From the IMG/VR virus record IMGVR_UViG_3300020182_000012: DNA of 64,000 bases. One strand, 5' to 3'. This DNA comes from a virus. Position numbers and translations under genes: made by a program. This document shows, piece by piece, positions 18,448 through 49,594 of the stretch (position 1 is the first letter of the stretch; every line of letters begins with the position of its first letter). The notes beneath the pieces are model-generated. The model was not told where the DNA came from. It did not search any database and worked only from the letters and a program-made list of their open reading frames with translations.

Positions 18448-19500
18448 ATGGCTAAAAAGAAAAAACACCCAAACCAAAAGAAAAAACAAACAGAGGCAGT
18501 AGCAACCGAAGCAGTCTTGCCCACCGGAAGTAAAGTTCTAGTAACAGGCGGCTTGGGACTTATTGGCCACAATGTTGTTGCAAAACTACAATCAGCAGGA
18601 CACGAAGTACAAATTGTTGATGTGCTCACTACGTACAATAGTGTTAACAAAGAAGAATTAGAGTATTTGTACAACGAACGTATTAAAAAGATTTCTCCTG
18701 ACACACACATTTATAAATTAGATATTTGTGATGGCAAGGTCGACGAAGTCTTTGAAATCTTCAAGCCAGAATATGTTATTCACTTGGCTAGTTTTCCAAG
18801 AGAAAAGGCAGTAAAGCATAATCCAATTGATGCTGCACACACCATGGGCGAAGGTCTAATCAATGTCATGGAATGTTGTGTGCGTCATGATGTTAAAAAA
18901 GTACTGTATGCTAGCTCCAGCATGGTGTACGGTGACTTCGAGGATGACGTAAACGAAGATGCAGTGCTAAACCCACAGGGTGCATATGCTATTTGGAAAG
19001 TCGCTGGCGAACAAATCATGCGCCAATACAAACGTGCACACAATTTAGATTATGTAATTGTTCGTCCTAGTGCAGTGTACGGCCCATTGGATGTAGGCGA
19101 TAGAGTTATCAGCAAATTCCTTATCAGCGCAATGGCAGGCGGCACACTTCAAGTTAATGGTGCCACAGAGAAACTAGACTTTACATATGTTGATGATGCA
19201 GCTGATGGCATGATTGCTGCTACATTCAGTGAGCATGTTGGTACATACAATCTCACCAAGAGCCATAGCTGCACACTGGAAGCGGCTGCAAATCTTGCAG
19301 TTAAACTAGCTGGTAAAGGCTCAGTTAGCATGCACGAAAAAGACGACGACTTTCCAAGTCGCGGTGCACTAAACATTGATGCAGCAAGAAAAGACTTTGG
19401 GTTTGATCCAAAAGTTGATATTGATGAAGGCTTTCAAATCTATTATGATTGGCTTACAAACAGTAGTTATTGGGCCGTTAACAAAGCACAAGTTGCATGA
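18448..19500 (+). CDS. NAD-dependent NDP-sugar epimerase/dehydratase
   Basis: VLVTGGLGLIG, SSSMVYG, YAIWK, DFTYVDD; Lys-rich N-terminal extension. Confidence 0.9.
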   Translation: MAKKKKHPNQKKKQTEAVATEAVLPTGSKVLVTGGLGLIGHNVVAKLQSAGHEVQIVDVLTTYNSVNKEELEYLYNERIKKISPDTHIYKLDICDGKVDEVFEIFKPEYVIHLASFPREKAVKHNPIDAAHTMGEGLINVMECCVRHDVKKVLYASSSMVYGDFEDDVNEDAVLNPQGAYAIWKVAGEQIMRQYKRAHNLDYVIVRPSAVYGPLDVGDRVISKFLISAMAGGTLQVNGATEKLDFTYVDDAADGMIAATFSEHVGTYNLTKSHSCTLEAAANLAVKLAGKGSVSMHEKDDDFPSRGALNIDAARKDFGFDPKVDIDEGFQIYYDWLTNSSYWAVNKAQVA

Positions 19501-20582
19501 AAATACCATTTACTAACTTACAAGCCCAATATCAGGATTGTAAACAAGATATCGATGCAGCAATACAACGTTGCCTCGATATCGACAGTTTTATCACAGG
19601 GCCCGATGTTACAGAATTTGAATTAAAATTTGCAGAATATCTCGGCGCTGATGATGTAGCAAGTTGTGGTAGCGGTACTACAGGACTTTATTGTGCAATG
19701 CGGGCCCTAAACATTGGCCCAGGTGATGAAGTAATCACAGTAAGTCATACGTTTGTTGCTACACCCGAAAGTATTGTTATATGCGGTGCTACTCCGGTGT
19801 TCTGCGATATTGATCCAGACACTTGGCTAGTTGATCTTGATCAATTGGAAACACTGATTAATAAAAATACTCGTGCTGTACTATTTGTAGACATTTACGG
19901 ACAATGCCCTGACATTGAGCGAGTGCGCAACATATGCGATCATTACAATCTTGCAATGGTAGAGGATGCTGCACAGAGTGTGGGCAACCGGTGGAACGGT
20001 CGTCCGGTGGGAAGCCTCAGTGACATTACTTGTATGAGCTTTAATCCTGTGAAAAACTTGGGTGCAGTGGGTGATGCAGGCGCAGTAAGTGGCAGCAAGC
20101 ATTACATGAATGAAGTTCGCAAGTATAGAGATCATGGTAGAACTGGTCGTTACGACATTGTAGAAGTTGGATACAATGCTAGAATTGACAACATACAAAG
20201 CAATGTTGTTATGGCTAAATTGCCCAAGCTAGATGGCTGGCTTGAGCGCAAAAGAGAAATCTGTAACTATTATACCGAACAGTTATCAAGTGTGATTAAA
20301 ACGCCTGTTACTGTAGAAGGTAACAGTCATAGCTGGTATGTATATGTAATACAAACTGCTAATAGAGAGAGTTTAAAAGCACATCTCAATGATGCTGGCA
20401 TCGGAACAAACATTCATTATATGAGAGCTGCACACCAACAACCAGCATTTGCACAGTGGAGTCGTAGTTTGCCAGTAACTGAACGCACTGTAGACGAGAT
20501 ACTCAGCATACCGTGTTGGTATAGCATGACTGACAGCGAAGTTGATTATGTAGTAGACAGCGTTAAAGGTTGGAAATCATGA
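19497..20582 (+). CDS. DegT/DnrJ/EryC1/StrS PLP sugar aminotransferase
   Basis: SGTTGL, GDEVI, EDAAQS, SFNPVKNLG, GYNARID. Confidence 0.92.
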   Translation: MKIPFTNLQAQYQDCKQDIDAAIQRCLDIDSFITGPDVTEFELKFAEYLGADDVASCGSGTTGLYCAMRALNIGPGDEVITVSHTFVATPESIVICGATPVFCDIDPDTWLVDLDQLETLINKNTRAVLFVDIYGQCPDIERVRNICDHYNLAMVEDAAQSVGNRWNGRPVGSLSDITCMSFNPVKNLGAVGDAGAVSGSKHYMNEVRKYRDHGRTGRYDIVEVGYNARIDNIQSNVVMAKLPKLDGWLERKREICNYYTEQLSSVIKTPVTVEGNSHSWYVYVIQTANRESLKAHLNDAGIGTNIHYMRAAHQQPAFAQWSRSLPVTERTVDEILSIPCWYSMTDSEVDYVVDSVKGWKS

Positions 20583-21448
20583 AAATGAATTTGGTTGGAG
20601 CAGGCTATTGGGGTAGTAAACTCCTTGAAAGCTTGAAGCAGTTTGATGTTGATGCAACAGTAATTGACATACGCAACGGCCAAACCATTGATGACATCAA
20701 CAACAGCGATCCAGTTATACTAGCAACACCATTATGGCAGCACCACGAGCAAACAGTTGAGCTGGTTAAACGTGGACACGATGTGTATGTCGAAAAACCA
20801 ATGGCCGAGACTGCTGAACAAATCGAAGACATTGCCAGTCATCTTAAAGACGATCAATTGATAATGGTAGGTCACATATTCTTGCACCATCCTCAAATAC
20901 ATTTGATTAAAAGCATGCTGGACAACGGCGACATTGGCGACTTGACTTATATTCGCAGCGAAAGATCAAATTGGGGAATTTATCAAACTAAAACAGATCC
21001 AGTTCTGAGTTTAGCAACACATGACATTAGCATTGTGAATTATTTCCAAGGCCCAATGACTGTAACCAATGCACAAAGCTGGAACTACAGTAACAACATT
21101 GTGCCTGACAGAGTTTGGTTTAGTGGCACACCTGGTTACGATATTGATGTCAGCTGGTATAGCCCAGTGCGTATTCGCCGCACTGTGTTGTTAGGAACTA
21201 AAGGACAAATTGTCTGGGATCAAGATGCTAACACTGTTACTGTTAGCAAACATAGTATAGAAGATCGCAGAAGTATAACTGATGCTTCCCTTAAAGTGTA
21301 TGAATACGATTACAAATATTCGCCTTTAGAATACGAATTAAAGCACTGGGTAGATTGTGTTGTTAATCGCACTACACCAAGTACAGGCATACGCAATGCA
21401 TTAGAAGTTGCTAATGTTATTGATTCTCTTAAAGGGATCCGTACTTAG
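20579..21448 (+). CDS. Gfo/Idh/MocA oxidoreductase
   Basis: VGAGYWG, ATP..H, VEKPM, MVGH, HDIS. Confidence 0.88.
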   Translation: MKMNLVGAGYWGSKLLESLKQFDVDATVIDIRNGQTIDDINNSDPVILATPLWQHHEQTVELVKRGHDVYVEKPMAETAEQIEDIASHLKDDQLIMVGHIFLHHPQIHLIKSMLDNGDIGDLTYIRSERSNWGIYQTKTDPVLSLATHDISIVNYFQGPMTVTNAQSWNYSNNIVPDRVWFSGTPGYDIDVSWYSPVRIRRTVLLGTKGQIVWDQDANTVTVSKHSIEDRRSITDASLKVYEYDYKYSPLEYELKHWVDCVVNRTTPSTGIRNALEVANVIDSLKGIRT

Positions 21449-23003
21449 AATCAAAGTACTGTCTCAGCCAAGTCCAATCAAATGCCGCCTTTAATTTAGG
21501 CAAATCTGGGCCAGTTGCGTTAAAGAACTCTACACCATCACGAGCACCATTTAATACCCATTCACTGTGCGGGCCGTGTGCCTTATTGGTCCACACGTGC
21601 AATCGATGACGAGCTTCCATGTTGGGAGTTCCATCTAAGAAGTAACTCAATTTACTAGCTTCCCTAAATGCAGTACGCCAAGCTTGATACGGGCTAGTAG
21701 CAAAGTTTCCATAACAACTTAGCTCAGGTACTACCTCGACCGGAAAGCTCATTGTGAAGTCTAATCCAAGCTCGCTGTAATCAGCACTTTCAATTACCAT
21801 GCGATTGTTGTACAGCACAACACCCATATGACCGTATACTAAATTATTGCTCATGTTTTTGCAATTAAAGATATAGTTCTTAGGAATTTGCATATAATCC
21901 GGAATATAATCAAATTTAAAATTTGGATTTAATTCAGTTTTTGCAAACACATGATAACTCCAGGGTGTGTTGCTTTTCGAACTTGCTGCCTGCAATGCTT
22001 GCTGCATGCCTTTAACTCCGTGCACACGATGCACAGTATTAGGTAAATCTTTTGTTATTTCCAATAATGTATTATAATTCTTTTCGGCGTCAATTTCATC
22101 ATAACTGATATAAACAATATCTTGGGGATCAGCTGACAGCACCGGGTGACTTTTATCTACCCACGGATAATCATAAATTTGAGTATTCAAATGATTCTTA
22201 GCTTCTCGCGGAATTAACACAGTGCTTGCACCTGCTACTAACGGAACAACTGTCTTAGTTTGTTCTTGCCACAAACTAATTGCCGGCACATCAATTTGTG
22301 CATTGTCATAACGACGAAATACTGCATAAGGCTCAACAAATTCGTGTTGCCATACTGCATCAACCACAGTGTCTGCGTCAAAATCAACAAAAGTCATTGG
22401 ATGGCGTTTTACTGTCCACACATCTGTAACAAAGTGTAGTGTTTCAAACCACTCAAGTATCTTTAAGTTTTCTGTTTTAGCTAAAAAACTAGGCACATGC
22501 ACATAAAAAGTATCTCCAAACTTTTGTTCATTGCTAGGAAATACATGCAGCATGTCGTGCTGGTATTCACTGTGATGCCAAGTGAAATCAAAATCTTTGT
22601 AATCGCAAACATCAGCTGTGACCCAACAGTACTCCCAATCTACTTTCTTTAACACTCGGCGCATTGTACCCAAGTAATCACTGATATATCGTGTGTTAAT
22701 ATCTCCTAAGTCCGGACTGGATGGGCTGTGTTTTATATGCAGTCTAGGTACGTAACCGACTCGGTTTACAATGGCATGATTGTAGTTTTTGTCTACGGCC
22801 CCGTGTTTTGGAACAAGCATGGTACCGGAGTTTTCTTGGTGCTGACTAGGCCACACATGTATTTGTTCACTTTCCCAAGGCGCAGGCTCCCAGGAGAAGT
22901 CAAAGTTAGAATAATCGCACCGATCATCTAACATCCATAAGTATCTAGTCCTGCTGAGTTTGCAGGCTTCATTAATGTCCATGGAATAAAATTTATCAAA
23001 CAT
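21429..23003 (-). CDS. glycosyltransferase-like protein (SYDE family), multi-domain
   Basis: C-domain ISYDE, RVHGVKG, YGHMG, QAWRTAFRE; paralog of 46089-47015; N-half has repeated FDF(S/T)W...H(V)xPS units. Confidence 0.55.
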   Translation of the reverse strand: MFDKFYSMDINEACKLSRTRYLWMLDDRCDYSNFDFSWEPAPWESEQIHVWPSQHQENSGTMLVPKHGAVDKNYNHAIVNRVGYVPRLHIKHSPSSPDLGDINTRYISDYLGTMRRVLKKVDWEYCWVTADVCDYKDFDFTWHHSEYQHDMLHVFPSNEQKFGDTFYVHVPSFLAKTENLKILEWFETLHFVTDVWTVKRHPMTFVDFDADTVVDAVWQHEFVEPYAVFRRYDNAQIDVPAISLWQEQTKTVVPLVAGASTVLIPREAKNHLNTQIYDYPWVDKSHPVLSADPQDIVYISYDEIDAEKNYNTLLEITKDLPNTVHRVHGVKGMQQALQAASSKSNTPWSYHVFAKTELNPNFKFDYIPDYMQIPKNYIFNCKNMSNNLVYGHMGVVLYNNRMVIESADYSELGLDFTMSFPVEVVPELSCYGNFATSPYQAWRTAFREASKLSYFLDGTPNMEARHRLHVWTNKAHGPHSEWVLNGARDGVEFFNATGPDLPKLKAAFDWTWLRQYFDSKYGSL

Positions 23004-24099
23004 GATTAGAATCGACGAAGTTTACAATAATGTTTTCCTGCCACGTGCGTTGGCAAAATCCAACAAAGGCAGTGCAGATAATAGCAACCAACAAATTGGT
23101 TTGCACTGGTTTGATCCCTTTGGAACAACACAATTTAAAAACATTTGTAGTTTGCCACCTATTACTTGGGGACAGAGCATGGAAAGTAGTGCCACCAGAG
23201 TTATATTTTGGGATCAAGAACCGGTACATAAACATAGATTTCAAGAGTTCATTTCAATATTTTTAGAATCATTTGACGCCAGCACTACACGACTTGTTAC
23301 CAGTGAATACAATAGCGAAGATGTTCAGTGGGCTTGTGATACTTATGGACTCACAAGCGACTACTATTTTTTTCATGGATGGGCTGCACTTGACTGGTAT
23401 CGAGGATACAACAGAACTAGTGTAGCACAACCTTTTGCGGATCGCAAGCCATATAATACATTTCTTTGTCCTAATAATATAATTGGCGGCGAACGTCGGC
23501 ATCGAATCGAACTGTTAAACCAATTTGCAAACAGAAATATGTTGGATAAGAATCTTATATCATTTCCGGATACATGCCCATACGAAGGACTGTCAATTAA
23601 TGCTATATGCAAGAAGTATAACCTACAGGTACCAAATGTTCGACTACCTCTTACTATTGACAATGGTAGTGGATATGCTGCACAAAGCCATAGAATCGAT
23701 TTGTGGGAACAAGCAAACAATAGTTTAATACAAGTTGTAACAGAAACAGCATATGACGGTAACAAACAACACTTGACTGAAAAATCATTTAAACCTATAG
23801 TAATGCAACAGCCTTTTATAATACAGAGTTGCAAAGGCAGTTTAGAATACTTGCGCCGTTACGGGTTTAAAACATTTGGTGAATTCTGGGACGAAAGTTA
23901 TGACGAGCACGAAGATGACTCACGAACTCAAGAAATTGGTCGGTTATTATACGATATTAATAATATGAGCCAAAAAGAAAAAGCCTCTCTACAAAAAGCC
24001 GTAAGTAATACTGTGCAACACAACTTTGACTGGTTTTACAGTGACAAGTTTGAAAACATACTATGGGACGAACTCAACGAAATGACAGAACAATGGTAA
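23002..24099 (+). CDS. GT10/fucosyltransferase-like protein, paralog 1
   Basis: VVTET...LTEKSFKP...QPFI...YGFKTF..WDESYD. Confidence 0.5.
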   Translation: MIRIDEVYNNVFLPRALAKSNKGSADNSNQQIGLHWFDPFGTTQFKNICSLPPITWGQSMESSATRVIFWDQEPVHKHRFQEFISIFLESFDASTTRLVTSEYNSEDVQWACDTYGLTSDYYFFHGWAALDWYRGYNRTSVAQPFADRKPYNTFLCPNNIIGGERRHRIELLNQFANRNMLDKNLISFPDTCPYEGLSINAICKKYNLQVPNVRLPLTIDNGSGYAAQSHRIDLWEQANNSLIQVVTETAYDGNKQHLTEKSFKPIVMQQPFIIQSCKGSLEYLRRYGFKTFGEFWDESYDEHEDDSRTQEIGRLLYDINNMSQKEKASLQKAVSNTVQHNFDWFYSDKFENILWDELNEMTEQW

Positions 24100-25268
24100 C
24101 ATTTTGTGCAGATAAATTTAAAGGCAATGTGCCTTTTCCTAATTGTGCTGTCTGGGATGCACAACCATTTACCACTCAGTGGCGGCAATTTAGTATTAAC
24201 AGCCCGTTCAGTGAACCAGTGCATTTTTACGAATATCTAAAACAAGAAGGTATTGACTATAGTGTAGTCGACACCAGTGATGCACCCAACGGCAGCATAT
24301 ATCCAATTAGTCTTAGCTTTTTTGATTTTACTATAGAATGGTTTGATGTTATCCCGAAAAACGTTGTAAAACGTTTGGCAGACAACCAACTAAAAATTTG
24401 GTTTTTCTACAGCGAAGGAGATAACCCTTTTCGCATAAAAAAACATATTGAAAAACAAATGGTTACAGCAGGCATTTCGCCAGAAAACCTGCATTTCACC
24501 ACTGCAAACACTAAAAGTCACGATCTTACACAGTTCAGCTACTTATGTGACGATGAGCTGTTATACAGGCTCCGTAATGAAGGTCTAGCAACTGAGTTCC
24601 ACGACCTCCCACGCAGTAAAAATTTTACTGCACTTGTGCGCACACACAAATGGTGGCGTGCTAACACCATGACCAGACTGTGGATGAAAGGGTTGCACGA
24701 AAAAGGATTCTTTGGATACAATGCTGATATTAGTGTAGGTGATTTACCAGAAGATAATCCTGTTGAAGTTGATAGTTTTGGTAGTCTAAGACATCACACT
24801 GAATTCTTTTTAAAACTGTGCCCGTTTCATGCAGATTTATTGAGCAGCGACGAACACAATTTGTACCATCACACTGTGGCAGCACACCACGACGATGCAT
24901 ACTTTAACTTTGTAATCGAAACGCATTTAGATGTAGATCAAAGCAACGGTGTGTTTTTAACAGAAAAAACATTTAAACCCATCAAGCATGCACAGCCATT
25001 TGTAATTGTTGGTGCGGCAGGTAGTATACAACAGTTACGCAACATGGGTTATAAAACGTTTGATCATGTTGTTGATCACAGTTATGACAACATTGCTAAC
25101 AACACTGAGCGCTGGAATGCAGTGTGCAACGAAATGGAACGAATTGCAAAATCTAAAAAAATACATCAAATGTATATAGATTGTAAAGAAGATTTGCTGC
25201 ACAATCAACAGTTATTCTTGGCTAGCAAAGCCAATAGATTAGAAACAATATTAAGGAAATTAAAATGA
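24093..25268 (+). CDS. GT10/fucosyltransferase-like protein, paralog 2
   Basis: VIET...FLTEKTFKP...QPFV...GYKTF..DHSYD. Confidence 0.5.
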   Translation: MVTFCADKFKGNVPFPNCAVWDAQPFTTQWRQFSINSPFSEPVHFYEYLKQEGIDYSVVDTSDAPNGSIYPISLSFFDFTIEWFDVIPKNVVKRLADNQLKIWFFYSEGDNPFRIKKHIEKQMVTAGISPENLHFTTANTKSHDLTQFSYLCDDELLYRLRNEGLATEFHDLPRSKNFTALVRTHKWWRANTMTRLWMKGLHEKGFFGYNADISVGDLPEDNPVEVDSFGSLRHHTEFFLKLCPFHADLLSSDEHNLYHHTVAAHHDDAYFNFVIETHLDVDQSNGVFLTEKTFKPIKHAQPFVIVGAAGSIQQLRNMGYKTFDHVVDHSYDNIANNTERWNAVCNEMERIAKSKKIHQMYIDCKEDLLHNQQLFLASKANRLETILRKLK

Positions 25269-41187: not shown

Positions 41188-41851
41188 TAAAATATAACTC
41201 TTTGTTTAGTAGTTGATATTCAACAATCAGTTGTTTTATACTATTAGTAACCGGTTTATTCAAAATAGTTTCTAAACTATCTGTAAGTGACGAATTATCT
41301 AATCCAAAAATTGTTTTAAAATTTATAATATGGTTTACATTTTTACGATCTAGAGTATTATGCCAATTAATGGTATCCTTATTGAGTTGTTCATGCATTA
41401 TATCAAATACATCTGGATGGTCAAGGTTACTAATATTATATGGAGGAAAGTTGCATCCTGTTGCTACCCACTTGTTGTATTCTTGCTGTGTCCAAAGATT
41501 TGGAAATCCTTTTTTTATAAACAACGTTGTTATGTGTTCAAAATCATCCTCGTCTGCGTCGATTGCAATCACTGTTATATTATTAAACATGGTTTGGAGT
41601 TTACTTACAAAATCATGTTGATGTGTGTAATATATCTTCGCTGGCACACTCTGGTTTTCCCAATAATTTCCCATAAAACATACATCATCTTTGTTATTAT
41701 TGTGTGCCCATACACCTCTATCACACCGATGGTAATCACCATGCGTAGCATCTATACGATTTGTTATCTGTATATCAAGCATCTTGGCAATTATTGTCGT
41801 AAGAAATAATCCACCACTTCCACTAACATGATGTATGCAGATTCTAGACAT
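41180..41851 (-). CDS. hypothetical protein, possibly P-loop/sulfotransferase-like fold
   Basis: N-terminal SGSGGLFL loop and YTH motif; weak assignment. Confidence 0.4.
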   Translation of the reverse strand: MSRICIHHVSGSGGLFLTTIIAKMLDIQITNRIDATHGDYHRCDRGVWAHNNNKDDVCFMGNYWENQSVPAKIYYTHQHDFVSKLQTMFNNITVIAIDADEDDFEHITTLFIKKGFPNLWTQQEYNKWVATGCNFPPYNISNLDHPDVFDIMHEQLNKDTINWHNTLDRKNVNHIINFKTIFGLDNSSLTDSLETILNKPVTNSIKQLIVEYQLLNKELYFNA

Positions 41852-42887
41852 TGAAAATATTTTTCATCTTGTGTTTTTGTTCAGTACTAAATTCTTTTAG
41901 TCTATGTTTATTATAACGCAAATCTGGTAACATGTCAAGATACATTTGTTCAAGTTCAGATTTTGGCATGTCCACTAAATGATGTATCACACTCATTAAC
42001 GCATCATGTTGTCCGGTGGTTTCAACTGGAATATGATCCCAATAATGATTGAATGTGCGGAAGCCTCTGTCTCTCAACCATTGATATGATCTTGGATTGC
42101 CGTGTACATGAAAAGGACGCAATCCTACCATTGGCTTCCAAATTTTTTCTGTCATAAACACAGGCTTCCATTCATCAAATTCAGTTTCGCTTACTACATT
42201 CAAAAAATGATTTTTCCATAGGTCAAGACGTCCAACAGTAACAAGATCATTGGGTACACCGGCATGGTCATCATGATCGCCTTGCGTTTGATTGTACGCT
42301 GCCGGGAGATCATCAATTGTCATTGGAACTACTTCCAGACCTTGTTGCCAATCTGTGCCGTCTTTTGCTGCGCCGCCTAGTGTGACAATACCACGTTCTA
42401 ATAAATGGGGGTTCTCACGCAAAATATTCGTAATTTCAATCCTGTGCCGTCTTGGTTTTCTTTGATATAACATGTATGCAAAATCAGCACTTTGCATTAC
42501 TACTTGGTCTTCTGTGTACGCAGGCATACGATCGTTTGCAATCATGGCATGAAAGTTCCACTCCTTTGCTTCACCTTCGTACATGCCTATTCTGTGTACA
42601 TTTTTAATTTTGTATTTGTTGATTATTTTTTGTAAATCTTCTGTGAAAAGATATTCAGGATCGATTACACATAGCAAAAATAAATTATCAAATTCACCTT
42701 CTAAATTCATCGTTTGTTTCCAGCAATCGTTATCAAATTGACTGCCAAACCATGTTGTGTTAATTAAAAGATTTTTCTCATTCGGAAAACGTTGCTTAAT
42801 TTGCATTTCTGTGCTATCAATTATTTCCAACTCGTCTTTACCGTACGGCCAAGTCAACGGGAAGTGTGTCCCGATTCTTACAAGCAT
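41844..42887 (-). CDS. GT10/fucosyltransferase-like protein, paralog 3
   Basis: VVSET...FMTEKIWKP..RPF..GFRTF. Confidence 0.5.
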   Translation of the reverse strand: MLVRIGTHFPLTWPYGKDELEIIDSTEMQIKQRFPNEKNLLINTTWFGSQFDNDCWKQTMNLEGEFDNLFLLCVIDPEYLFTEDLQKIINKYKIKNVHRIGMYEGEAKEWNFHAMIANDRMPAYTEDQVVMQSADFAYMLYQRKPRRHRIEITNILRENPHLLERGIVTLGGAAKDGTDWQQGLEVVPMTIDDLPAAYNQTQGDHDDHAGVPNDLVTVGRLDLWKNHFLNVVSETEFDEWKPVFMTEKIWKPMVGLRPFHVHGNPRSYQWLRDRGFRTFNHYWDHIPVETTGQHDALMSVIHHLVDMPKSELEQMYLDMLPDLRYNKHRLKEFSTEQKHKMKNIFNV

Positions 42888-43705
42888 TCTATCATTTTCC
42901 TTATCCCGTGCTCCAATGGAGTATCACAGATTAGTCCCAAACTTTGCATTCTTTCAGTGCTACCAACCCTGTGGCCAGCACCTTCTGGTTCATTGGTTTG
43001 CGTTTTAACTGGTATTGTTACACCGTGCACTAGTTTGTAAACTATTTCGGCTACTTCTTTAAATGTAATTGCATTACCAGATGCAATGTTTACAGTAACT
43101 GGTTCTTCTCTATGCAACAAGTATTCAAATACTTTAAGTGCATCATCAATGTACACCCAGTCTCTTGTTTGTGTTCCGCTGCCCCACACACTACATTCTC
43201 CCTGGCGTGCTCTTTCTATTATAGCAGGCAATGGATAGTCCATGTCTTGTCCTGGACCGTATATGCTAAAAGGACGCATAACATGGACAGGAATGTCAAG
43301 TGTTTTTAGCATACCCTCTGCTACTAGTTTGGAGAGTCCATACAAGTCAAAGGTTTTTGAATTTCCAAACTGTTCTTCGTGCATTGGAGTATTCGGCGAT
43401 TCTTGCAAGTGTGTTGGATATGCTGCACAACTACTAGGGTAAATGATCTTTTTACAAAACTCATCTGCCCACTTGAATGTTATTCTATCTATTTCTATAT
43501 TTTCAGCAATACGCCATTTGTTATTGTCTATACCTTTACGCCCGCCCACAAAGGCTGCAAAATGATATAGACAATCAAAACGTTCATAAGGTAAATTGCG
43601 TCTTACATCTTGTGTAAAGGGTGTAACATCATGCCCCTTTTCTTTAAGATACCTAACAGTATTCCTGCCAAGGAACCCGTCTGCGCCAGTGATTAATACT
43701 TTCAT
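42878..43705 (-). CDS. NAD-dependent NDP-sugar epimerase/dehydratase
   Basis: ITGADGFLG, YGLSK, YGPGQ, TRDWVYIDD. Confidence 0.9.
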   Translation of the reverse strand: MKVLITGADGFLGRNTVRYLKEKGHDVTPFTQDVRRNLPYERFDCLYHFAAFVGGRKGIDNNKWRIAENIEIDRITFKWADEFCKKIIYPSSCAAYPTHLQESPNTPMHEEQFGNSKTFDLYGLSKLVAEGMLKTLDIPVHVMRPFSIYGPGQDMDYPLPAIIERARQGECSVWGSGTQTRDWVYIDDALKVFEYLLHREEPVTVNIASGNAITFKEVAEIVYKLVHGVTIPVKTQTNEPEGAGHRVGSTERMQSLGLICDTPLEHGIRKMIECL

Positions 43706-43717
43706 ACAAATATGTAT

Positions 43718-45160
43718 CTATTTTAAGTTGCTGGCTGCATATTTACACTCGGCCCACCAGTCAGCCATTTCGGGGAATGTTTTTAAAAAGTCTGTTCCGC
43801 GCCGGCGATCGTGCTCAGTAAAGAACTTATAGAAGTCTGCTTTATTGCGATTAACGTACTCAGTGGATAGTTTTTGTCCATTGCGCATCCACGCAATATC
43901 TCTGTCTAATCGGTTAACTTCATAGTCTTTAAATCCGTGAAACCGAGTGGCTTCAGTTTCTAGATTGTCCAACATCCAAGACTTAATATTTTCAAGTTCA
44001 TACACATAGCTCTCAGGCAACAGTTGCAGGCTTTGCCAAGAAGGTGTGCGCAGCACAGGTGTATCAAACCACACTCGTTGATACGTTGTACTATATGCTT
44101 GCCTTAGTTCAAGTATAGAAACAAACAATTTGTGTAGAGTAGTTACACTTAGATTGCTCATTGTTATGATAAATGTAACACTGTTACGTTCCGGAATGTC
44201 ACGTAAAAATTGATGTACTCTATCCCACAACAAGTCAAAGTCGAGTCCATGGCGTACATATTCTACTTGCTCGAACATCCCATCCAAGCTTACATACTGC
44301 ATAAAGTGTTCCACAGTGTCTGGTTGACTGCATATTTTTGAGACATACTTCTTGTACTTTTGCCACAGTTTTTCATCTACGCTAAAGTTTGATGTTGTGC
44401 TTAGATGCAAGTCTGACTTGGGATTGGCCAGCACATGATCAAATACTCGATATGTATTTTTATCCATCAACGGTTCGCCACCAGTCATTCGGAAGTGCTC
44501 TAAATCTGGATACAATGTGGGCCACCATTCCCAGAATGCATCGACATACGGATTGTGTTCTCTTGCAGGAATAGGTCTACGTTCACCAGCGAAATGTGCT
44601 GGATGGTTGTGCGGTGTGCTAGTTGGCCATGCACCGTGTTTTTCTGTTTCAGCCATCCATGTTGAACTATACTGCGGCGAACAATAACTACAACTCAGAT
44701 TGCATGCGCTGTTAAAGTCTACTTCAACGTAACTAGGAGTAATGTCTTTGTCCCATGATGCGTTTGTTATTTTTTCAAAATCTTTCATTGCCCAAGGTTC
44801 GCCGCTGCGATAATGTCTATCACTTAGCTTTCCGTTGTCTTCCATAGCCCAGCAGTAATTACATTCAGTTGGGCGCACTCCTTCGAGCATCAACTTGCGT
44901 TGTTGTTTTTTATAATCTGTGTTGTGTAGCGCACTGGGATTTTTCTTAATAGCTTCTGCATCTGCTTTGTGCAATGGCGGATGATAACAACTATTGTTCA
45001 TGCCAGTTGTTAAATGTAAACTAAGTTGTTTCCACTTAGCTAAACACATACTAGGACTTACTGTGTCTAACTTCTGTTGTGCTTGTTCAGCATCAGTGAG
45101 AAAATTACTTTTAAAATTTTCATCAACGCCATCACCTTTGTTTTGTTTAGTATTTGTCAT
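43718..45160 (-). CDS. radical SAM/twitch protein (8 of 8)
   Basis: CLAKW, SCYH, CNYCW; CNLSCSYC; GGEP; SLDG; close paralog of 39835-41187. Confidence 0.9.
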   Translation of the reverse strand: MTNTKQNKGDGVDENFKSNFLTDAEQAQQKLDTVSPSMCLAKWKQLSLHLTTGMNNSCYHPPLHKADAEAIKKNPSALHNTDYKKQQRKLMLEGVRPTECNYCWAMEDNGKLSDRHYRSGEPWAMKDFEKITNASWDKDITPSYVEVDFNSACNLSCSYCSPQYSSTWMAETEKHGAWPTSTPHNHPAHFAGERRPIPAREHNPYVDAFWEWWPTLYPDLEHFRMTGGEPLMDKNTYRVFDHVLANPKSDLHLSTTSNFSVDEKLWQKYKKYVSKICSQPDTVEHFMQYVSLDGMFEQVEYVRHGLDFDLLWDRVHQFLRDIPERNSVTFIITMSNLSVTTLHKLFVSILELRQAYSTTYQRVWFDTPVLRTPSWQSLQLLPESYVYELENIKSWMLDNLETEATRFHGFKDYEVNRLDRDIAWMRNGQKLSTEYVNRNKADFYKFFTEHDRRRGTDFLKTFPEMADWWAECKYAASNLK

Positions 45161-46088
45161 TTTTAAATATTTCAAAATCTTTTGTGGTTAGTTCCATAAA
45201 CCGTTTTTTATTATGCTGTAGTATGGGTTGCATTTCCTGATGCATAGTTCTAAGTTCTTGAGTGCTTTTTTTTGCTAGAGAATCAATGACTTTAATAATT
45301 TCATGCGGTTGATAGTCAGCTGGATCTTCAGCATAACCTTCGTTCCACCAACGATCAAATGTTTGAAAACCCATGTTACGCAGTCTGTGTAAGTGCCATT
45401 GAGGCCCTTGTATTATAAATGGCGTTGAAAGCATTATTGGCCTCCACGTTTTTTCAGTGGGATAAAATGTATTTCCGGTATAGTAGGTTTCGCAAACAAT
45501 TTCAATTAAAAAATTATTATATTCTTGATAAAAATTATGGTGTTGTTTTACTATAGGATAAGACACTTCGTCTTTTATAATAGGTGAATTTTCTAATAAA
45601 TTTACTGTTTGCGGTAATGCAATTGTTCCATATAATTCAACTAACTTGTCCAATCCAAGATTGTTCCTATGAAAGTCCATATTAGGATTATAATGAAATG
45701 TTTGGTTTGCTAAATTGTGTTCGTATAGATAGCCACTTAGATATAACCTGTGTACATTACTGCGTCCAATAAACATTCCAAATGTATTGTCTATAGTTTT
45801 GTTTACTACTACGTCTTTAAGGAAATTTATTGTATCATCTACCCAATTATTTGATATAATATCAAATACAATATTATTAATGTTTTTTTGTACTGGATTT
45901 CTAAAATTAACAACTTTTGCTGGATAGTCGCCAATCAATTCTACTAGCCCAAGTGTTTCAAAGTCTGGACCTTCGCTGTTTAAATCTAGTACCAGATCTT
46001 GTTTTGTTGCCTTGGCAGTAGCAATAGCCGTACAAACTTCAGCAAAATTCCAAACTTTGCTGTCACTGGTAACTACAACTACATTCAT
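45147..46088 (-). CDS. GT10/fucosyltransferase-like protein, paralog 4
   Basis: IVCET...PTEKTWRP..PFI..GFQTF..W.EGY. Confidence 0.5.
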   Translation of the reverse strand: MNVVVVTSDSKVWNFAEVCTAIATAKATKQDLVLDLNSEGPDFETLGLVELIGDYPAKVVNFRNPVQKNINNIVFDIISNNWVDDTINFLKDVVVNKTIDNTFGMFIGRSNVHRLYLSGYLYEHNLANQTFHYNPNMDFHRNNLGLDKLVELYGTIALPQTVNLLENSPIIKDEVSYPIVKQHHNFYQEYNNFLIEIVCETYYTGNTFYPTEKTWRPIMLSTPFIIQGPQWHLHRLRNMGFQTFDRWWNEGYAEDPADYQPHEIIKVIDSLAKKSTQELRTMHQEMQPILQHNKKRFMELTTKDFEIFKNDKY

Positions 46089-47015
46089 CTACCAGCCTTC
46101 TTGACTACGAATAACATCAATCTCGCGAGTCATAATATTTTTATTATTCCAGTTACTACGATAGTGATGTTTGAAAAACTTACTCTGTTCAGGAGAAAAT
46201 GTGTTCATTGGCAAATCTAATTGTCTGTTTAATGCATTAGCATGTTGTTCGACTATGTTAAGTGGATCAGTGTTTTCTATTTCGTTCCAAATTTGTTCTA
46301 GATTGTCGAACCATTGTACTTCTTTATGATCCCAATCTGTTAGCATGGTTTTGTATGTTCCGAGTCTTGCACCAGCAATTGCCCACAGACCGTAATCTGC
46401 ATCGCTACCCACATTTTGCCAGACAGTCAAGTGATCGAGATTGCGACTGTGCACTCGTTCTTTAAATTCGCTGACACTTGGTTTGCGGCCTCTGTCAAGG
46501 CACATCTTTACACCTTCACGAAAGCCAGCACGCCAGGCCTGTTTAGCACTTCCATTTGGATGTGTAGTTGAATAGCAATTGTACATCGGCCAGTACAGCG
46601 GATCAAAACAAAACTCTACATCAGTATCATCTGCGCCTTCACTTGCTTCATGTGTGCGCATGTTCATAACAAACTCTTTTGTCCAAGAACTCATGCCGCC
46701 GTTACCATACATCAAACCATTAACATGATTACGTGCTCTCCAGCGATAAACTGCCTTTTCGTAGCTACTGTCCTTGTATTCAATGGTTTGATTGAAAAAA
46801 GACTCCTCAGGAAGATTGTCACCATCAATTAATATAAAACGTTCAGTATCGCTTGCTTGTGCTGCGGCTTTGTGTGCAGCATCGCTGCCTTCTACCCCAT
46901 CAACACGTTTTGCCCACGGAACCATGTTGCGTATCTTAACCCAAAACTCTTCTTTTTGTGGTTCATCGTAAGAAAGATAGATACAGTCCAAATCGGCAAT
47001 ATCAATTGAATCCAT
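46089..47015 (-). CDS. glycosyltransferase-like protein (SYDE family, DxD)
   Basis: LSYDEP, RVDGVEG, IDGD, YGNGG, QAWRAGFRE. Confidence 0.6.
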   Translation of the reverse strand: MDSIDIADLDCIYLSYDEPQKEEFWVKIRNMVPWAKRVDGVEGSDAAHKAAAQASDTERFILIDGDNLPEESFFNQTIEYKDSSYEKAVYRWRARNHVNGLMYGNGGMSSWTKEFVMNMRTHEASEGADDTDVEFCFDPLYWPMYNCYSTTHPNGSAKQAWRAGFREGVKMCLDRGRKPSVSEFKERVHSRNLDHLTVWQNVGSDADYGLWAIAGARLGTYKTMLTDWDHKEVQWFDNLEQIWNEIENTDPLNIVEQHANALNRQLDLPMNTFSPEQSKFFKHHYRSNWNNKNIMTREIDVIRSQEGW

Positions 47016-47029
47016 GTTAACTCCGTGAT

Positions 47030-47365
47030 TTATCTTGTGTAGGGTTTAAAATCTTGGCCATTAGCAACCAAACACGCTGTTCCGTTATCATACAAACTCA
47101 CTAGTGTCCAGGTGCCCGAGTTCTGGTTAACAAAAAACATCATTGAACTCCAATATTCTTTGCTGTCAGATGAACTCCGTTGCATGCCTCTGCCACTGTG
47201 CAAAGGTTTTTCGCCATAATTGTTCATAACCGTATTAGTCATCTGAATAACTGGTGCACAAGGTTGTGTAGTAAGAAAAAATTTAGTTTCTTGTTCTTGC
47301 GACAACACCGTTGCTGGTAGTAGTACTAGTATTCCTGCAATAAATGCATTTAATATATACTCCAT
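47030..47365 (-). CDS. secreted hypothetical protein
   Basis: Signal peptide; two Cys; GTWTLV..G.AC. Confidence 0.65.
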   Translation of the reverse strand: MEYILNAFIAGILVLLPATVLSQEQETKFFLTTQPCAPVIQMTNTVMNNYGEKPLHSGRGMQRSSSDSKEYWSSMMFFVNQNSGTWTLVSLYDNGTACLVANGQDFKPYTR

Positions 47366-47394
47366 TTAATATTTTCCTTATTATTATAAAGTAT

Positions 47395-47742
47395 TTACTT
47401 TAAATAATACGTTTTACTAGCCCACTTAATATCACTGTTGTTGTCCACAATCATTACATTATCAGCTCTACACCTAGTACCAGTCTCAGATGGTACTAAT
47501 TTTGTCCAACTCACAGCATCATTTTGCCTAACAATCTTGCCTTTAAGAACAAGTATATCATACCGTCCTTCGCTGTGTTGTTTTTGTGTTACTGTAATAT
47601 AATCGCCATCATGTTGCCCTTCCATACTGTAGAACAATGGTTCTCCAGTTTCTTTATTATAGTACAATCTATATTCATAGTCAACCGGTTTATTATCCGC
47701 TATTATTTGATCAAACAATTGTGCTAGTTCTTCTTCAGTCAT
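47395..47742 (-). CDS. hypothetical protein
   Basis: EYRLYY..GEPLFYSM; overlaps upstream gene. Confidence 0.7.
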   Translation of the reverse strand: MTEEELAQLFDQIIADNKPVDYEYRLYYNKETGEPLFYSMEGQHDGDYITVTQKQHSEGRYDILVLKGKIVRQNDAVSWTKLVPSETGTRCRADNVMIVDNNSDIKWASKTYYLK

Positions 47743-48514
47743 AGTACTGCCCTAATTGCTGTGCTAATTCTTTTTGATGATAGTGAACAAATCCGTGTTG
47801 ATTATGCCCGTTGATACGTAGTACTCCATCGTCTACTTCCCATGTCAGCTCTTTTGCCCAGTCGTCGGCACTAGTGCCAAGTATTCTCGGTTTCATGTGT
47901 ACAATTTGAGGACCTGTGCCCGGAGTAACAAAGTCGCTGCCATTTAATGCATAAATTAAATCTGTATTGGCTATTTCGTCGCTGCCTAGTTTAATGTTAA
48001 GTTTGATCTTATCCCAATCTTCAAAGCACTGTTTTACATTGTTAAAGAATCGCTGTGCATCGGGACTTACTCTCCAGTAAGTAATTGCATTATATACATC
48101 GGGTAAATTGTTATGATCAAATATTTTCCTATAGTGTCGCACAGTTGATGTAGTTCCGTGGAAGTCTCGTGCACCAGTGCTAATCCAAACCGGCTTGTTT
48201 CGATACAAGGGCCACCAATGGTCAATCGGACCACTAACAACCATGTCTGCTTCTAATTTTACAGTTTCGTGAAACGGGCTAGCATAAAATACTTGCCAGT
48301 CAGTGGACCAGCCGCCTGTATTGCCTTGTGGAAATTGCCTAACATAATCAAAAAGAGGATTTGCATAGTTCTCATGATCTGTAACCAAACAAATCTTTAC
48401 ATCCGGGTGCCAGTATTTGAGACTTTTTGCAAGTGTTTCTGCACAAGAAATATAGTCAACACCGTCGGTGATTCCTGCAACAATTAGATATCCTCGATCA
48501 GCTTCGTACTGCAT
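47735..48514 (-). CDS. GT-A (GT8-like) glycosyltransferase
   Basis: LAKSLK...ICLVTD...SPFHETVKLEAD...VHMK; start re-set to MQYEAD. Confidence 0.65.
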   Translation of the reverse strand: MQYEADRGYLIVAGITDGVDYISCAETLAKSLKYWHPDVKICLVTDHENYANPLFDYVRQFPQGNTGGWSTDWQVFYASPFHETVKLEADMVVSGPIDHWWPLYRNKPVWISTGARDFHGTTSTVRHYRKIFDHNNLPDVYNAITYWRVSPDAQRFFNNVKQCFEDWDKIKLNIKLGSDEIANTDLIYALNGSDFVTPGTGPQIVHMKPRILGTSADDWAKELTWEVDDGVLRINGHNQHGFVHYHQKELAQQLGQYYD

Positions 48515-49292
48515 ACAGTTTCTCCAAATAACTCTTGCACATAACATGTAGATCATGATTTTTAACACAAATTTTCTTTTTGCGGTTATCATTAATATAG
48601 TTAATCCACCATATATCATCAACTAGGTCAGCTTCTACATCAGTTTCTACATTTGCCATTGGCCACGGGATTTCGCACTGATGTGGGTGTGTATTTCCAT
48701 TAGCCAATAATAATGCAATGCTTATTGCAAAGTCGTTGCGATATTGTTTAGTGTTGAATCCAAACAATGTTCCGTAGTGCGCATAGTTTTGTTCTACCAT
48801 CTTCCAAACATTAAACACATCTTGTGTAAATTGACTGTGACGGTCAAAAATAACAACTGTTGCCCACCACATGTGTGATTTTTTTGTCCCAAACGTTTGC
48901 AGCCTCGGTAACGGCTGATGTACATTGCGAACATGTCTGTGGCATAAGAACGGTTGTGAACTATCTAGTAACGGTGCCAACGAATCGCCGTTGACCATGT
49001 AATCTGTGTCAACTAATAGTGTTCTATCGTAAGGTGATAGATCGAGTGCAGCGTTTCTGCCAAAATTATACCAAGTTGTTGTTTCTTTTCTGTCATGAAA
49101 ATATCGCCTATTGGTGTTTTTACCGCGATCAACTATAACTTGACTGTCAAACATATCTGAATCAACAGATTTGTCAGTAACCAGTGTTACCGGAATATTG
49201 AGGTGTTTTTTTATTCGTCGTGCACACTCAACAGCAAGTTTAGTATACTGTATTTCACTGTCAAACGCAAAAAGTAAAGCGCCCGTTGTCAT
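48498..49292 (-). CDS. GT-A (GT8-like) glycosyltransferase
   Basis: VTLVTD, SPYDRTLLVDTD (DxD), RNDFA, HVMCK; paralog of adjacent gene. Confidence 0.65.
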   Translation of the reverse strand: MTTGALLFAFDSEIQYTKLAVECARRIKKHLNIPVTLVTDKSVDSDMFDSQVIVDRGKNTNRRYFHDRKETTTWYNFGRNAALDLSPYDRTLLVDTDYMVNGDSLAPLLDSSQPFLCHRHVRNVHQPLPRLQTFGTKKSHMWWATVVIFDRHSQFTQDVFNVWKMVEQNYAHYGTLFGFNTKQYRNDFAISIALLLANGNTHPHQCEIPWPMANVETDVEADLVDDIWWINYINDNRKKKICVKNHDLHVMCKSYLEKLYAVRS

Positions 49293-49594
49293 CTTTGTTT
49301 GGAAATTTCATTGTATTCGGCTTGCCAGGCATTCATTTGTTCTTGCCATCGCTGCATTGCTAATTTTTTAAGTTCATGTGGATCTACACTAACTGGCGTA
49401 TTGTAATAATCTTCAAGTACCACAAGTGTATCTTGGCAACAATCACACAACACAATCAAGTCCGGCGATGCTTTCCACATACCGCCATCGTGCGCAAAAA
49501 GCATCTTGGCTTCATACGTTTCCCGCAAGACAATCCTAGCTTGCTGATGATCAAATCTGGTTTTAATGTTTTGGGAGAGTTGGTCTGTTTGCAT
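49289..49594 (-). CDS. hypothetical protein, first gene of the minus-strand biosynthetic operon
   Basis: GGMWKA..LI..VVLEDYYNTP; ATG 49594 lies inside a 13-bp hairpin. Confidence 0.7.
   Translation of the reverse strand: MQTDQLSQNIKTRFDHQQARIVLRETYEAKMLFAHDGGMWKASPDLIVLCDCCQDTLVVLEDYYNTPVSVDPHELKKLAMQRWQEQMNAWQAEYNEISKQR

Follow-up and report, generated by a model that had tools for sequence, protein, structure and literature searches.

A conserved gene island of T4-like jumbo phages that may direct synthesis of a carbamoylated, guanidino-bearing virion glycan

In a large T4-like phage from water, about 31 kb next to the tail-fibre genes hold some 33 enzyme genes, a block that is kept in more than 100 uncultured phages. 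We tentatively propose that this conserved and probably late-expressed operon makes a heavily tailored glycan which is attached to a Ser/Thr-rich, fibre-like virion protein. Most likely, the product would be an unusual carbamoylated, guanidino-bearing sugar coat. As already assumed in a preliminary description of this DNA, literature searches retrieved no characterised phage pathway of such composition.

Extent and conservation of the island

The window analysed here comprises 64,000 nucleotides and belongs to a fragment of 135 kb from a T4-like jumbo phage, with a completeness of about 39%. The phage origin was supported by a gp23 match (1e-100) and by the IMG/VR record. Profile searches bore out the gene inventory of the preliminary description, i.e. 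eight radical SAM genes, two amidinotransferases, a carbamoyltransferase, DegT, Gfo, two SDR, one cytidylyltransferase-like and eight glycosyltransferase (GT)-like genes. The island is real as a block of genes. Genes for MetK, a MTA/5'-dA nucleosidase-like protein, a Fe-S assembly protein, a cyclophilin-like protein and a 40-aa peptide were not listed in that description. Between 27546 and 49609 the minus-strand genes indeed form a nearly gapless run with overlaps of 1-38 nt, which follows the fibre-like gene.

Co-occurrence and synteny in relatives had been suggested as a check. Conservation was counted over 80 related IMG/VR loci. The core was syntenic in at least 80 such loci, four near-complete genomes of 316-349 kb among them, and was always located downstream of a fibre gene with a conserved N-terminus. 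The carriers are T4-like jumbo phages of one clade, which come from fresh as well as marine waters. Accessory genes, restricted to the nearest relatives, are the aminoglycoside-like DegT/Gfo/SDR set, MetK and those for the nucleosidase and the Fe-S protein. The conserved core had no genes for nucleotide-sugar synthesis; a nucleotidyltransferase was present only in close relatives.

Table 1. Features of the island and the adjoining fibre genes (positions in the window; loci are related IMG/VR loci).
Position	Strand	Feature	Basis
18448-19500	+	SDR epimerase/dehydratase, accessory	Pfam
19497-20582	+	DegT aminotransferase, accessory	Pfam, 346 bits
20570-21448	+	Gfo/Idh/MocA oxidoreductase, accessory	Pfam
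21429-23003	-	524-aa protein; C-terminal half a set-B paralog of 46089-47015 (GT-A/GT2-like), N-terminal half with internal repeat	blastp
23002-24099, 24063-25268	+	Two set-A GT-B paralogs	AF2; 73-74 loci
25265-26293	+	Core amidinotransferase (AGAT/StrB1 family)	PDB phmmer: AGAT 5e-15, StrB1, HsvA, SxtG
26290-27549	+	Radical SAM paralog 1 (N_Twi_rSAM), accessory copy	NF033640, 232 bits
27546-27845	-	Fe-S cluster assembly protein (FeS_assembly_P), accessory	Pfam 2.9e-16; 7 loci
27836-29353	-	Core O-carbamoyltransferase (NodU/CmcH/TobZ type)	Carbam_trans_N and _C; PDB NovN/GdmN/TobZ, E 3e-49
29353-30489	-	Second amidinotransferase paralog	32% identical to 25265-26293
30380-31474	-	S-adenosylmethionine synthetase (MetK), accessory	Three Pfam domains; 8 loci
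31471-31593	-	40-aa basic peptide, C-terminal DPFIYK, ATGA-coupled to both neighbours	Codon and neighbourhood analysis
31590-32648	-	Core protein, cyclophilin-like barrel with inserted helical bundle, always directly upstream of peptide gene	AF2
32635-33951, 33951-35036, 35984-37186, 37183-38562, 38559-39845, 39835-41187	-	Six radical SAM paralogs	Pfam; NF033640, 189-415 bits
34999-35415	-	Cytidylyltransferase-like	Pfam
35412-35987	-	MTA/5'-dA nucleosidase-like, among radical SAM genes	Pfam
41180-41851	-	223-aa uncharacterised protein	
41844-42887	-	Set-A GT-B paralog	Paralogy by blastp
42878-43705	-	Second SDR epimerase	Pfam
43718-45175	-	Core radical SAM, subtype as 39835 and 37183	NF033640, 313 bits; 66% identity, 80 loci
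45147-46088	-	Set-A GT-B paralog	Paralogy by blastp
46089-47015	-	Core set-B GT2-like protein, DGD motif	69% identity, 67 loci
47030-47365, 47395-47742, 49289-49609	-	Small conserved uncharacterised proteins	Conservation in loci
47735-48622, 48498-49292	-	Two GT8/Nucleotid_trans-like set-C paralogs (lead)	hhalign, cluster proximity
49641-50570	-	Ser/Thr-rich (32%) fibre-like protein, operon head, candidate glycan acceptor	Composition
50733-52124	-	Fibre-like structural gene; upstream T4 late-promoter consensus TATAAATA (52150-52157)	PHROG tail-fibre and virion matches

The carbamoyltransferase and the DPFIYK peptide

The O-carbamoyltransferase was present in 67 of the 80 loci (median identity 60%). 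It is linked to the gene of a strongly basic peptide of 33-40 amino acids without a transmembrane helix: of 78 other phage loci, 74 have both genes side by side. In at least 40 other phages the pair is located between primase and helicase genes; a position beside RNR also occurs. For the peptide, 1770 clusters were counted. The cultured Ralstonia phage RsoM2USA has the peptide gene too, along with a homolog of the island carbamoyltransferase (45%). A radical SAM gene accompanied only about five of the 78 other peptide loci. The distribution is nested: peptide and carbamoyltransferase; radical SAM, peptide and carbamoyltransferase (RsoM2USA, L180); and finally the full island. RDPFIY was invariant in 57 distinct DNA versions in which third codon positions were free to vary, whereas the flanking enzymes were only 55-60% identical. 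Judged by its codons, the peptide gene is under strong purifying selection. The model of the cyclophilin-like protein, present in 73 loci (median identity 57%), had a pLDDT of 82 and matched cyclophilins VIA-wide at Z 7-8.

This extreme selection and the nested distribution would suit a peptide-based or small-molecule product. The peptide would be a ribosomal precursor or scaffold whose invariant C-terminus is carbamoylated, cross-linked or otherwise altered by twitch radical SAM enzymes, then amidinated and glycosylated, giving a glycopeptide, a cofactor or a toxin-like molecule during infection; alternatively, the cell would contain a free guanidino/carbamoyl metabolite as the product. In favour of a peptide, the TobZ relative HypF is an enzyme that carbamoylates HypE at its C-terminal residue. 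Although foremost among the rival explanations, we consider this one unlikely. The usual companion of the peptide is the carbamoyltransferase and not a radical SAM enzyme. Pfam detected no RRE-like domain in the island, and eight glycosyltransferases are many for a core of 6 to 20 residues. Further, the bacterial SxtK and DUF5989 proteins, which have a similar N-terminal motif and a C-terminal PFIY, accompany carbamoyltransferases acting on non-peptide substrates (PMC2679770).

From this resemblance we propose that the peptide is an SxtK-like partner of the carbamoyltransferase. In the cyanobacterial saxitoxin cluster (SxtI/SxtJ/SxtK) and in bacterial DUF5989 pairs a NodU/TobZ-type enzyme similarly lies beside a same-strand protein of about 35-55 aa. 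The shared features are an L-K-x-L-W-x-F-like motif at the N-terminus and PFIY near the C-terminus; the AGAT-family amidinotransferase of the island is in addition SxtG-like. However, the Pfam DUF5989 model did not match the phage peptide and hhalign was weak (17%). In place of the transmembrane helix of the bacterial protein there is a basic helix in the phage peptide; the phage gene is upstream of the enzyme, the bacterial one downstream. Nor does the island contain further sxt genes (SxtA PKS, Rieske oxygenases). As proposed for SxtI with SxtK, the carbamoyltransferase and its small partner may transfer carbamoyl groups onto hydroxyls.

Radical SAM enzymes, amidinotransferases and glycosyltransferases

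The eight radical SAM genes (Pfam and NCBIfam) are mutual paralogs. All exceeded the 170-bit cut-off of NCBIfam NF033640 (N_Twi_rSAM, with an N-terminal twitch domain), and all have a CX3CX2C motif and four invariant N-terminal cysteines. The earlier assignment as BtrN-like was not supported. The genes belong to a separate, uncharacterised family; literature searches retrieved no member of established function, and no activity on glycans is known for any of them. Five copies are core across the clade; those starting at 32635, 35984, 38559 and 39835 were 61-69% identical over the 80 loci. The island shares model and Cys motifs with the family and differs by its five to eight copies in a single operon. 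This number of paralogs, as well as tandem fusions elsewhere, is unusual.

In the one bacterial N_Twi_rSAM pair examined, the neighbours were Fe/2OG dioxygenases (PhyH), a WelO5-like halogenase and a methyltransferase. This context indicates small-molecule or peptide tailoring and not a glycan locus. It speaks for a peptide or small-molecule product, as does the fact that twitch/SPASM radical SAM enzymes are typical peptide maturases, to which secondary NCBIfam matches were obtained. For the favoured virion glycan, the five core enzymes, eight in the present phage, would carry out sugar C-H chemistry such as epimerisation, oxidation or deoxygenation. MetK, the 5'-deoxyadenosine/MTA nucleosidase and the Fe-S assembly protein, present here and in the closest relatives, may support the radical SAM load.

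In the core amidinotransferase the catalytic Cys and His were aligned (54 loci, median identity 78%), and both amidinotransferases retain the C-terminal catalytic-Cys motif. They would convert amines to guanidino groups. The preliminary description had invoked the oxidase/DegT/amidinotransferase logic of the streptidine branch of streptomycin (StrI/StsC/StrB1). All three kinds of genes are in the window, yet they are no conserved unit: DegT, Gfo and SDR occurred in 0-11 of the 80 loci at low identity, and the amidinotransferase alone is core. Inositol-phosphate or kinase genes were not seen in the island. DegT, Gfo and SDR may provide the present phage and its nearest relatives with an additional amino sugar.

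The eight GT-like genes form three paralog sets which together could assemble the glycan. A GT fold was substantiated for set A (23002, 24063, 41844, 45147). The AF2 model me77de053925d had a pLDDT of 90, and all Foldseek and VIA matches were GT-B, with VIA Z scores of 13.1 for H. pylori FucT and 12.2 for T4 BGT. For sets B and C, assignment to GT-A is weak. In set B (46089; C-terminal half of 21429) GT2 matches were only weak and came from 5-7 of 23 orthologs. The set-C genes (47735, 48498) are paralogs (hhalign 98%) with GT8/Nucleotid_trans as nearest clusters, and GT8 likeness is a lead only. Orthologs of 21429-23003 flank the island in relatives; the segment 41180..43705 with the 223-aa protein, a set-A GT-B and an SDR is variable.

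T4 beta- and alpha-glucosyltransferases were among the top set-A fold matches (Z 11-12). This bears on DNA hypermodification, a further suggestion of the preliminary description: the carbamoyltransferase with a basic DNA-binding peptide, BGT-like GT-B enzymes, amidinotransferases and radical SAM enzymes would modify genome bases against restriction. A phage-encoded enzyme of the same NodU/TobZ-type family, widespread in viromes, is a proven 5hmC carbamoyltransferase (MetaGPA, eLife 2021, PMC8670742). ThyX adjoins the island, and the charge of the peptide and the primase/helicase or RNR neighbourhood in other phages also fit. On the other hand, the BGT matches were tied with fucosyltransferases and protein O-GTs, the island lies on the late strand in the region of the structural genes, and the phage's own fragment had no dCMP deaminase. 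The MetaGPA enzyme has a ThyA-like dCMP hydroxymethylase as its partner, whereas the island enzyme lies among GTs and radical SAM genes. PF00303 (ThyA/dCMP hydroxymethylase) was absent in four relatives with the full island (91-100% complete) and in the own fragment, which argues against an hmC-type route. Overall, DNA hypermodification appears quite improbable.

Fibre genes and the acceptor of the glycan

Ser/Thr-rich virion proteins had been noted previously, and the protein at the operon head, adjoining the fibre gene, has this composition: Ser plus Thr amounted to 27-33% in its orthologs (n = 19) compared with an island median of 12%. It is the best candidate acceptor. The virion-glycan reading is favoured by this conserved richness of the first gene and by the strict synteny with fibre genes. 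Counting against it are the tailoring context of the bacterial example, the peptide-carbamoyltransferase pairs between primase and helicase, the lack of core nucleotide-sugar genes, a radical SAM family in which no glycan-acting enzyme is known, and the weak GT-A assignments.

Viral GTs and sugar-tailoring genes beside structural genes are similarly found in virion glycosylation systems (capsid/tail O-glycosylation of mycobacteriophages; chlorovirus, mimivirus) and in P-SSM2-type LPS islands. For the present phage, glycosylation is a prediction. Radical SAM enzymes, amidinotransferases and the DPFIYK peptide are not known from mycobacteriophage, chlorovirus, mimivirus or cyanomyovirus glycan systems. 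The P-SSM2 sugar island does carry a carbamoyltransferase: in cultured cyanophages and a pelagiphage these enzymes lie among sugar-nucleotide genes, e.g. for heptose (P-SSM2) or UDP-glucose dehydrogenase (HTVC008M). In MetaGPA, carbamoyltransferases on unmodified-DNA contigs had group 1 glycosyltransferases as neighbours (PMC8670742).

The P-SSM2 and HTVC008M gene sets are of the LPS type, and the enzymes might instead remodel LPS, capsule or another envelope glycan of the host during infection, e.g. against superinfection or trapping of progeny, similar to the LPS-type clusters of cyanomyoviruses. The GT and sugar-nucleotide content is compatible with this, and the transmembrane helix of bacterial DUF5989 partners suggests membrane-associated substrates. 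However, the phage peptide has no such helix, no gene for a flippase, a polymerase, a lipid-carrier transferase or a membrane protein was recognised in the island, and the fibre-gene synteny and the Ser/Thr-rich first gene favour a virion target. We judge host-surface remodelling improbable. Expression of the proposed virion-glycan operon is probably late, as suggested by the T4 late-promoter consensus that precedes the fibre gene and by the tight coupling of genes on one strand.

Source phage and content of the gene island

The stretch belongs to a single IMG/VR virus record of 135,142 bp with an estimated completeness of 39%; among its genes is one for a major capsid protein of the T4 type (Gp23, E 1e-100). 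Relatives bearing the same island measure 316-349 kb and are 91-100% complete; one of them has terminal repeats. Gp23 and these large, near-complete relatives identify the source as a T4-like jumbo phage, represented in metagenomes only. A megablast search with 17 kb of the island gave no DNA-level match to cultured phages. Some island contigs sit in MAGs labelled Haliscomenobacter, Legionellales, Polynucleobacter, Lishizhenia, Legionella and Gammaproteobacteria (loci L167, L168, L172, L173, L175, L176 and L180); the labels are either due to mis-binned phage DNA or are host hints. The minus-strand genes form a nearly gapless run downstream of a fibre-like gene, and a T4 late-promoter consensus is located 26 nt 5' of the start of the latter. 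Immediately 5' of the fibre genes lies one open frame of 3678 codons (3711 if taken to the window end). Elsewhere in the window a gene for a MoxR-type AAA ATPase lies near one for a DUF2201 metallopeptidase/VWA-like protein, as in the known MoxR-VWA systems of bacteria.

Pfam, NCBIfam and PDB sequence searches bore out every enzyme class listed in the preliminary description. In addition, the island contains genes for MetK, an MTA/5'-deoxyadenosine nucleosidase-like protein, an Fe-S assembly protein and a conserved 352-aa protein (31590-32648, called cyclophilin-like below). The former three fit with a demand for keeping eight radical SAM enzymes running. With one radical SAM query 127 related IMG/VR stretches were retrieved, 80 loci were fetched and all island proteins were compared with them by tblastn; gene order was read in 8 of these. 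The co-occurrence in relatives that had been expected was indeed found, as a strictly syntenic core; within the clade, core enzymes share 57-78% identity. Confined to the nearest relatives (0-12 of the 80 loci) were DegT, Gfo/Idh/MocA, both SDRs, MetK, the nucleosidase, a cytidylyltransferase-like gene and the Fe-S protein. A streptidine-like trio of oxidase, transaminase and amidinotransferase had been proposed as the logic of the island. It is not conserved as a unit: Gfo was present in none of the 80 loci, DegT in 6 and SDR in 11, versus 54 for the amidinotransferase. Because DegT, Gfo and SDR are restricted to the nearest relatives, the trio is therefore not the island's conserved logic. 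The island itself is a real and widespread system, and a minimal version is present in the cultured Ralstonia phage RsoM2USA.

Features of the window and their rank in the syntenic core, counted from the fibre gene (D, divergently read after the carbamoyltransferase)
Core rank	Coordinates	Strand	Feature
1			fibre N-terminus
2	49641-50570		first operon gene
3	from 49289		core gene
4	48498-49292		set-C glycosyltransferase-like
5	47735-48622		set-C glycosyltransferase-like
6	from 47395		core gene
7	46089-47015		set-B glycosyltransferase-like
8	from 43718		radical SAM
9			set-A glycosyltransferase-like
10	from 39835		radical SAM
11	from 38559		radical SAM
12	from 35984		radical SAM
13			set-A glycosyltransferase-like
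14	from 32635		radical SAM
15	31590-32648	-	cyclophilin-like protein
16	27836-29353	-	carbamoyltransferase
D1	25265-26293	+	amidinotransferase
D2, D3			two set-A glycosyltransferase-like
D4	21429-23003		homolog, C-terminal half set B
	from 23002, 24063, 41844, 45147		set-A genes of the window
	18448-19500; 42878-43705		SDRs
	19497-20582		DegT
	20570-21448		Gfo/Idh/MocA
	27546-27845		Fe-S protein
	29353-30489	-	amidinotransferase paralog
	30380-31474		MetK
	31471-31593	-	DPFIYK peptide
	47030-47365	-	111-aa protein
	17735-18406	+	ThyX
	12853-13944	+	MoxR-type AAA ATPase
	14935-16191	+	DUF2201 metallopeptidase/VWA-like
	52863-63899	-	long open frame

Among the island's unknown ORFs, set A, set C, the cyclophilin-like gene, the ORF at 41180 and the small ORFs had no match in Pfam and NCBIfam, and PDB-sequence profile searches with five island family alignments (A1, A2, A3, A7 and A8) gave no credible match. 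For the cyclophilin-like family Foldseek against the PDB and an Atlas feature search were empty; VIA-wide and atlas comparisons returned only a core of moderate likeness to cyclophilins (Z 7-8, TM 0.3). The 111-aa protein inside the operon has a hydrophobic, signal-peptide-like N-terminus, matches a PHROG of unassigned function and is conserved in close relatives only.

Radical SAM enzymes and transferases

The eight radical SAM genes are mutual paralogs. All matched NF033640 of NCBIfam ("twitch domain-containing radical SAM protein", N_Twi_rSAM) with 189-415 bits at a curated cut-off of 170. The CX3CX2C motif is present in each, C33, C52, C94 and C97 are invariant N-terminal to it, and Pfam SPASM matches were located at residues 9-98. 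At the level of sequence this confirms the predicted N-terminal auxiliary-cluster (twitch) domain. Many relatives consist of two or three such radical SAM domains fused in tandem (800-1400 aa). For one island enzyme more than 7000 metagenomic homologs were found, and the family comprises 7358 clusters of 50% identity at E ≤ 1e-30; the encoding contigs of two representatives were 3 kb only. A literature search on the family name gave no characterised NF033640 member and nothing relevant. Identification of the island product would assign a chemistry to a large radical SAM family. In Bacteroidota NF033640 is rare, with 1 of 151 sampled genomes above cut-off. There (L199, G086:C2:1208500-1228400), two adjacent N_Twi_rSAM genes are accompanied by five PhyH-type Fe/2OG dioxygenases, a WelO5-like halogenase, a methyltransferase and a dehalogenase-like ferredoxin protein. 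Its gene content makes this a tailoring cluster rather than a locus for polysaccharide synthesis.

The carbamoyltransferase matched Carbam_trans_N and Carbam_trans_C above the Pfam cut-offs (125 and 176 bits) and the structures of NovN, GdmN and TobZ with E-values of 3e-49 to 1e-31. All 29 homologs compared have kept its HH..H motif unchanged. These matches place it in the NodU/CmcH/TobZ family as a predicted O-carbamoyltransferase. In a PDB sequence search the core amidinotransferase matched AGAT (4.9e-15) and StrB1 (2.2e-11), and its catalytic His and C-terminal Cys motif were aligned. The paralog, 32% identical, has kept the C-terminal catalytic Cys motif of AGAT/StrB1.

The eight glycosyltransferase-like genes fall into three sets. 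An AlphaFold model of set A, which comprises four genes, was built with 23 orthologs and reached a pLDDT of 90. All its top matches in Foldseek and VIA were GT-B enzymes, with Z-scores reaching 13.1 across 272 residues; an alpha-1,3-fucosyltransferase of H. pylori (Z 13.1) and the T4 beta-glucosyltransferase (Z 12.2) were tied at the top. Thus, set A is modelled as a GT-B fold of two Rossmann domains. The other two sets are putative GT-A enzymes, and for them the assignment is weak. In set B a DGD motif is invariant and 5-7 of 23 orthologs had weak GT2 matches. The two set-C genes are clear paralogs, and their nearest named atlas clusters were Nucleotid_trans/GT8 (0.95-0.96). PDB profile searches with sets B and C were empty.

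The DPFIYK peptide and the carbamoyltransferase

Between the cyclophilin-like gene and MetK we noticed a gene of 40 codons, coupled to its neighbours by ATGA overlaps at both start and stop. It is also present after the cyclophilin-like ortholog in 68 of the 80 loci. The C-terminal 21 residues are nearly constant among 57 different DNA versions, and R-D-P-F-I-Y is invariant. Since third codon positions are free in spite of the constant residues (Pro CCN: G16/A25/T15/C1), the peptide itself is under strong purifying selection. The protein collection holds 1770 clusters of distinct relatives, none of them named, and a literature search on the peptide motif and on this gene combination yielded nothing relevant. 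In the genome collection all contigs with the peptide came from MAGs and contained the same phage island; isolate genomes were without it. The core is abundant, yet no member of its peptide, N-twitch radical SAM and cyclophilin-like families is functionally characterised.

A pattern search for the variant QDPFIYK-stop uncovered 78 further viral loci, 74 of which have a carbamoyltransferase homolog on the same strand. Its start overlaps the peptide stop in 35 loci and is 9-10 nt 3' of it in 16. In at least 40 T4-like viral contigs of IMG/VR (L083-L160) the pair is inserted between Toprim primase and DnaB-like helicase genes, and KdsA and KdsB are encoded 4-5 kb 5' of it; 11 other loci have it after the gene of the RNR small subunit. 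In RsoM2USA (MG752970) an unannotated ORF of 36 codons (about 22220-22330, plus strand) ends with KQDPFIYK; it is located between RsoM2USA_201 and RsoM2USA_200, and the flanking genes encode the radical SAM RsoM2USA_202 (52% identical to the enzyme at 39835) and the carbamoyltransferase RsoM2USA_199 (45%). The module genes are currently annotated as hypothetical proteins; with radical SAM, peptide and carbamoyltransferase this minimal module constitutes a cultured entry point. The variety of these loci shows that peptide and carbamoyltransferase are a mobile two-gene module, and the island is its most elaborate setting.

A comparable pairing exists in bacteria. DUF5989 (SxtK) genes were found in 114 of 301 Bacteroidota genomes, and in 12 of 12 fetched loci they were immediately 3' of a carbamoyltransferase homolog. 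The bacterial proteins have 49 aa, an N-terminal L-K-D-L-W-x-F, a transmembrane helix of about 20 residues and a C-terminal A-P-F-I-Y-T-L-F. The phage peptide is of similar size, with (I/L)-K-x-(I/L)-W at the N-terminus, PFIY near the C-terminus and a same-strand carbamoyltransferase neighbour; yet it has a basic helix rich in Lys, Arg and Glu where the bacterial proteins have a membrane helix. The Pfam model PF19451 was without match in our sequence G000 (E ≤ 10) or in 33 phage peptides, and hhalign gave a probability of 17%. The putative link is based on common motifs and gene context, and homology lacks statistical support. From the likeness in motif, size and context we read the peptide as a probable carbamoyltransferase partner rather than a RiPP precursor. 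Identification of the island product would explain why small proteins of the SxtK type are paired with carbamoyltransferases, as has long been noted. A complex prediction of carbamoyltransferase and peptide scored 0.00, was run without controls and counts neither way.

That the peptide is a precursor or scaffold we consider unlikely. An obligatory co-occurrence with a maturase, as in RiPP biosynthesis, fails: radical SAM homologs, like those of glycosyltransferases and amidinotransferases, occurred in about 5 of the 78 further loci compared with 74 for the carbamoyltransferase. Pfam showed an RRE/PqqD-like recognition domain in none of the island ORFs. In a specific version, to be rated slightly lower still, the peptide would be a ribosomal scaffold, and carbamoyltransferase, twitch radical SAMs, amidinotransferases and glycosyltransferases would build a glycopeptide or cofactor-like molecule on its C-terminus. 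If true, a RiPP-like pathway would for the first time be seen conserved throughout a major, abundant clade of phages, and many T4-like marine phages would have a minimal version of it. Two other functions were discarded. A ribosome-arrest leader of the carbamoyltransferase was downgraded because the peptide is equally ATGA-coupled to MetK, a whole gene separates peptide and enzyme in RsoM2USA and about 10 loci, and the bacterial look-alikes are 3' of the enzyme. A capsid-targeted peptide cleaved after L-E does not agree with the QDPFIYK variants, in which the L-E site is missing.

Virion glycan or modified DNA as possible products

DNA hypermodification had been considered as an alternative target. 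A phage enzyme of the NodU/TobZ family is a proven 5hmC carbamoyltransferase, which is always paired with a ThyA-like hydroxymethylase; in contigs with unmodified DNA the family is found beside glycosyltransferases (PMC8670742). This partner, a ThyA-like dCMP hydroxymethylase, was missing from the island-bearing genomes searched: PF00303 (ThyA family) was absent from four island-bearing relatives of 91-100% completeness, and the 135-kb fragment has neither a ThyA-family gene nor a dCMP deaminase. These absences argue against an hmC- or hmU-based modification, which appears unlikely, and leave room for other base chemistries. A gene for the flavin-dependent thymidylate synthase ThyX abuts the island. 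In RsoM2USA the ThyA family is represented by two genes, which lie far away from the peptide/carbamoyltransferase module.

The virion glycan suggested in the preliminary description is kept as our main reading: the island may be a late pathway for attaching a tailored glycan to virion proteins. This reading is favoured by the fixed position 3' of the fibre gene, by the first operon gene, the orthologs of which contain 27-33% Ser/Thr compared with an island median of 12%, and by the presence of three glycosyltransferase kinds. Further, the carbamoyltransferases of cultured cyanophages and one pelagiphage are in a sugar-gene neighbourhood. We put its probability somewhat short of even because the radical SAM family is uncharacterised and the peptide module is also found in replication-gene contexts. 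Product identification would reveal if large aquatic phages use guanidino/carbamoyl glycans as a coat of their fibres or of something else. Such a coat would bear on host recognition and on the evasion of defences. In the cyanophage S-CAM8 (L163) and the pelagiphage HTVC008M (L165) several 2OG-Fe(II) oxygenases flank the carbamoyltransferase, whereas its island counterpart has radical SAM neighbours. These may be oxygen-dependent and oxygen-independent forms of one tailoring logic.
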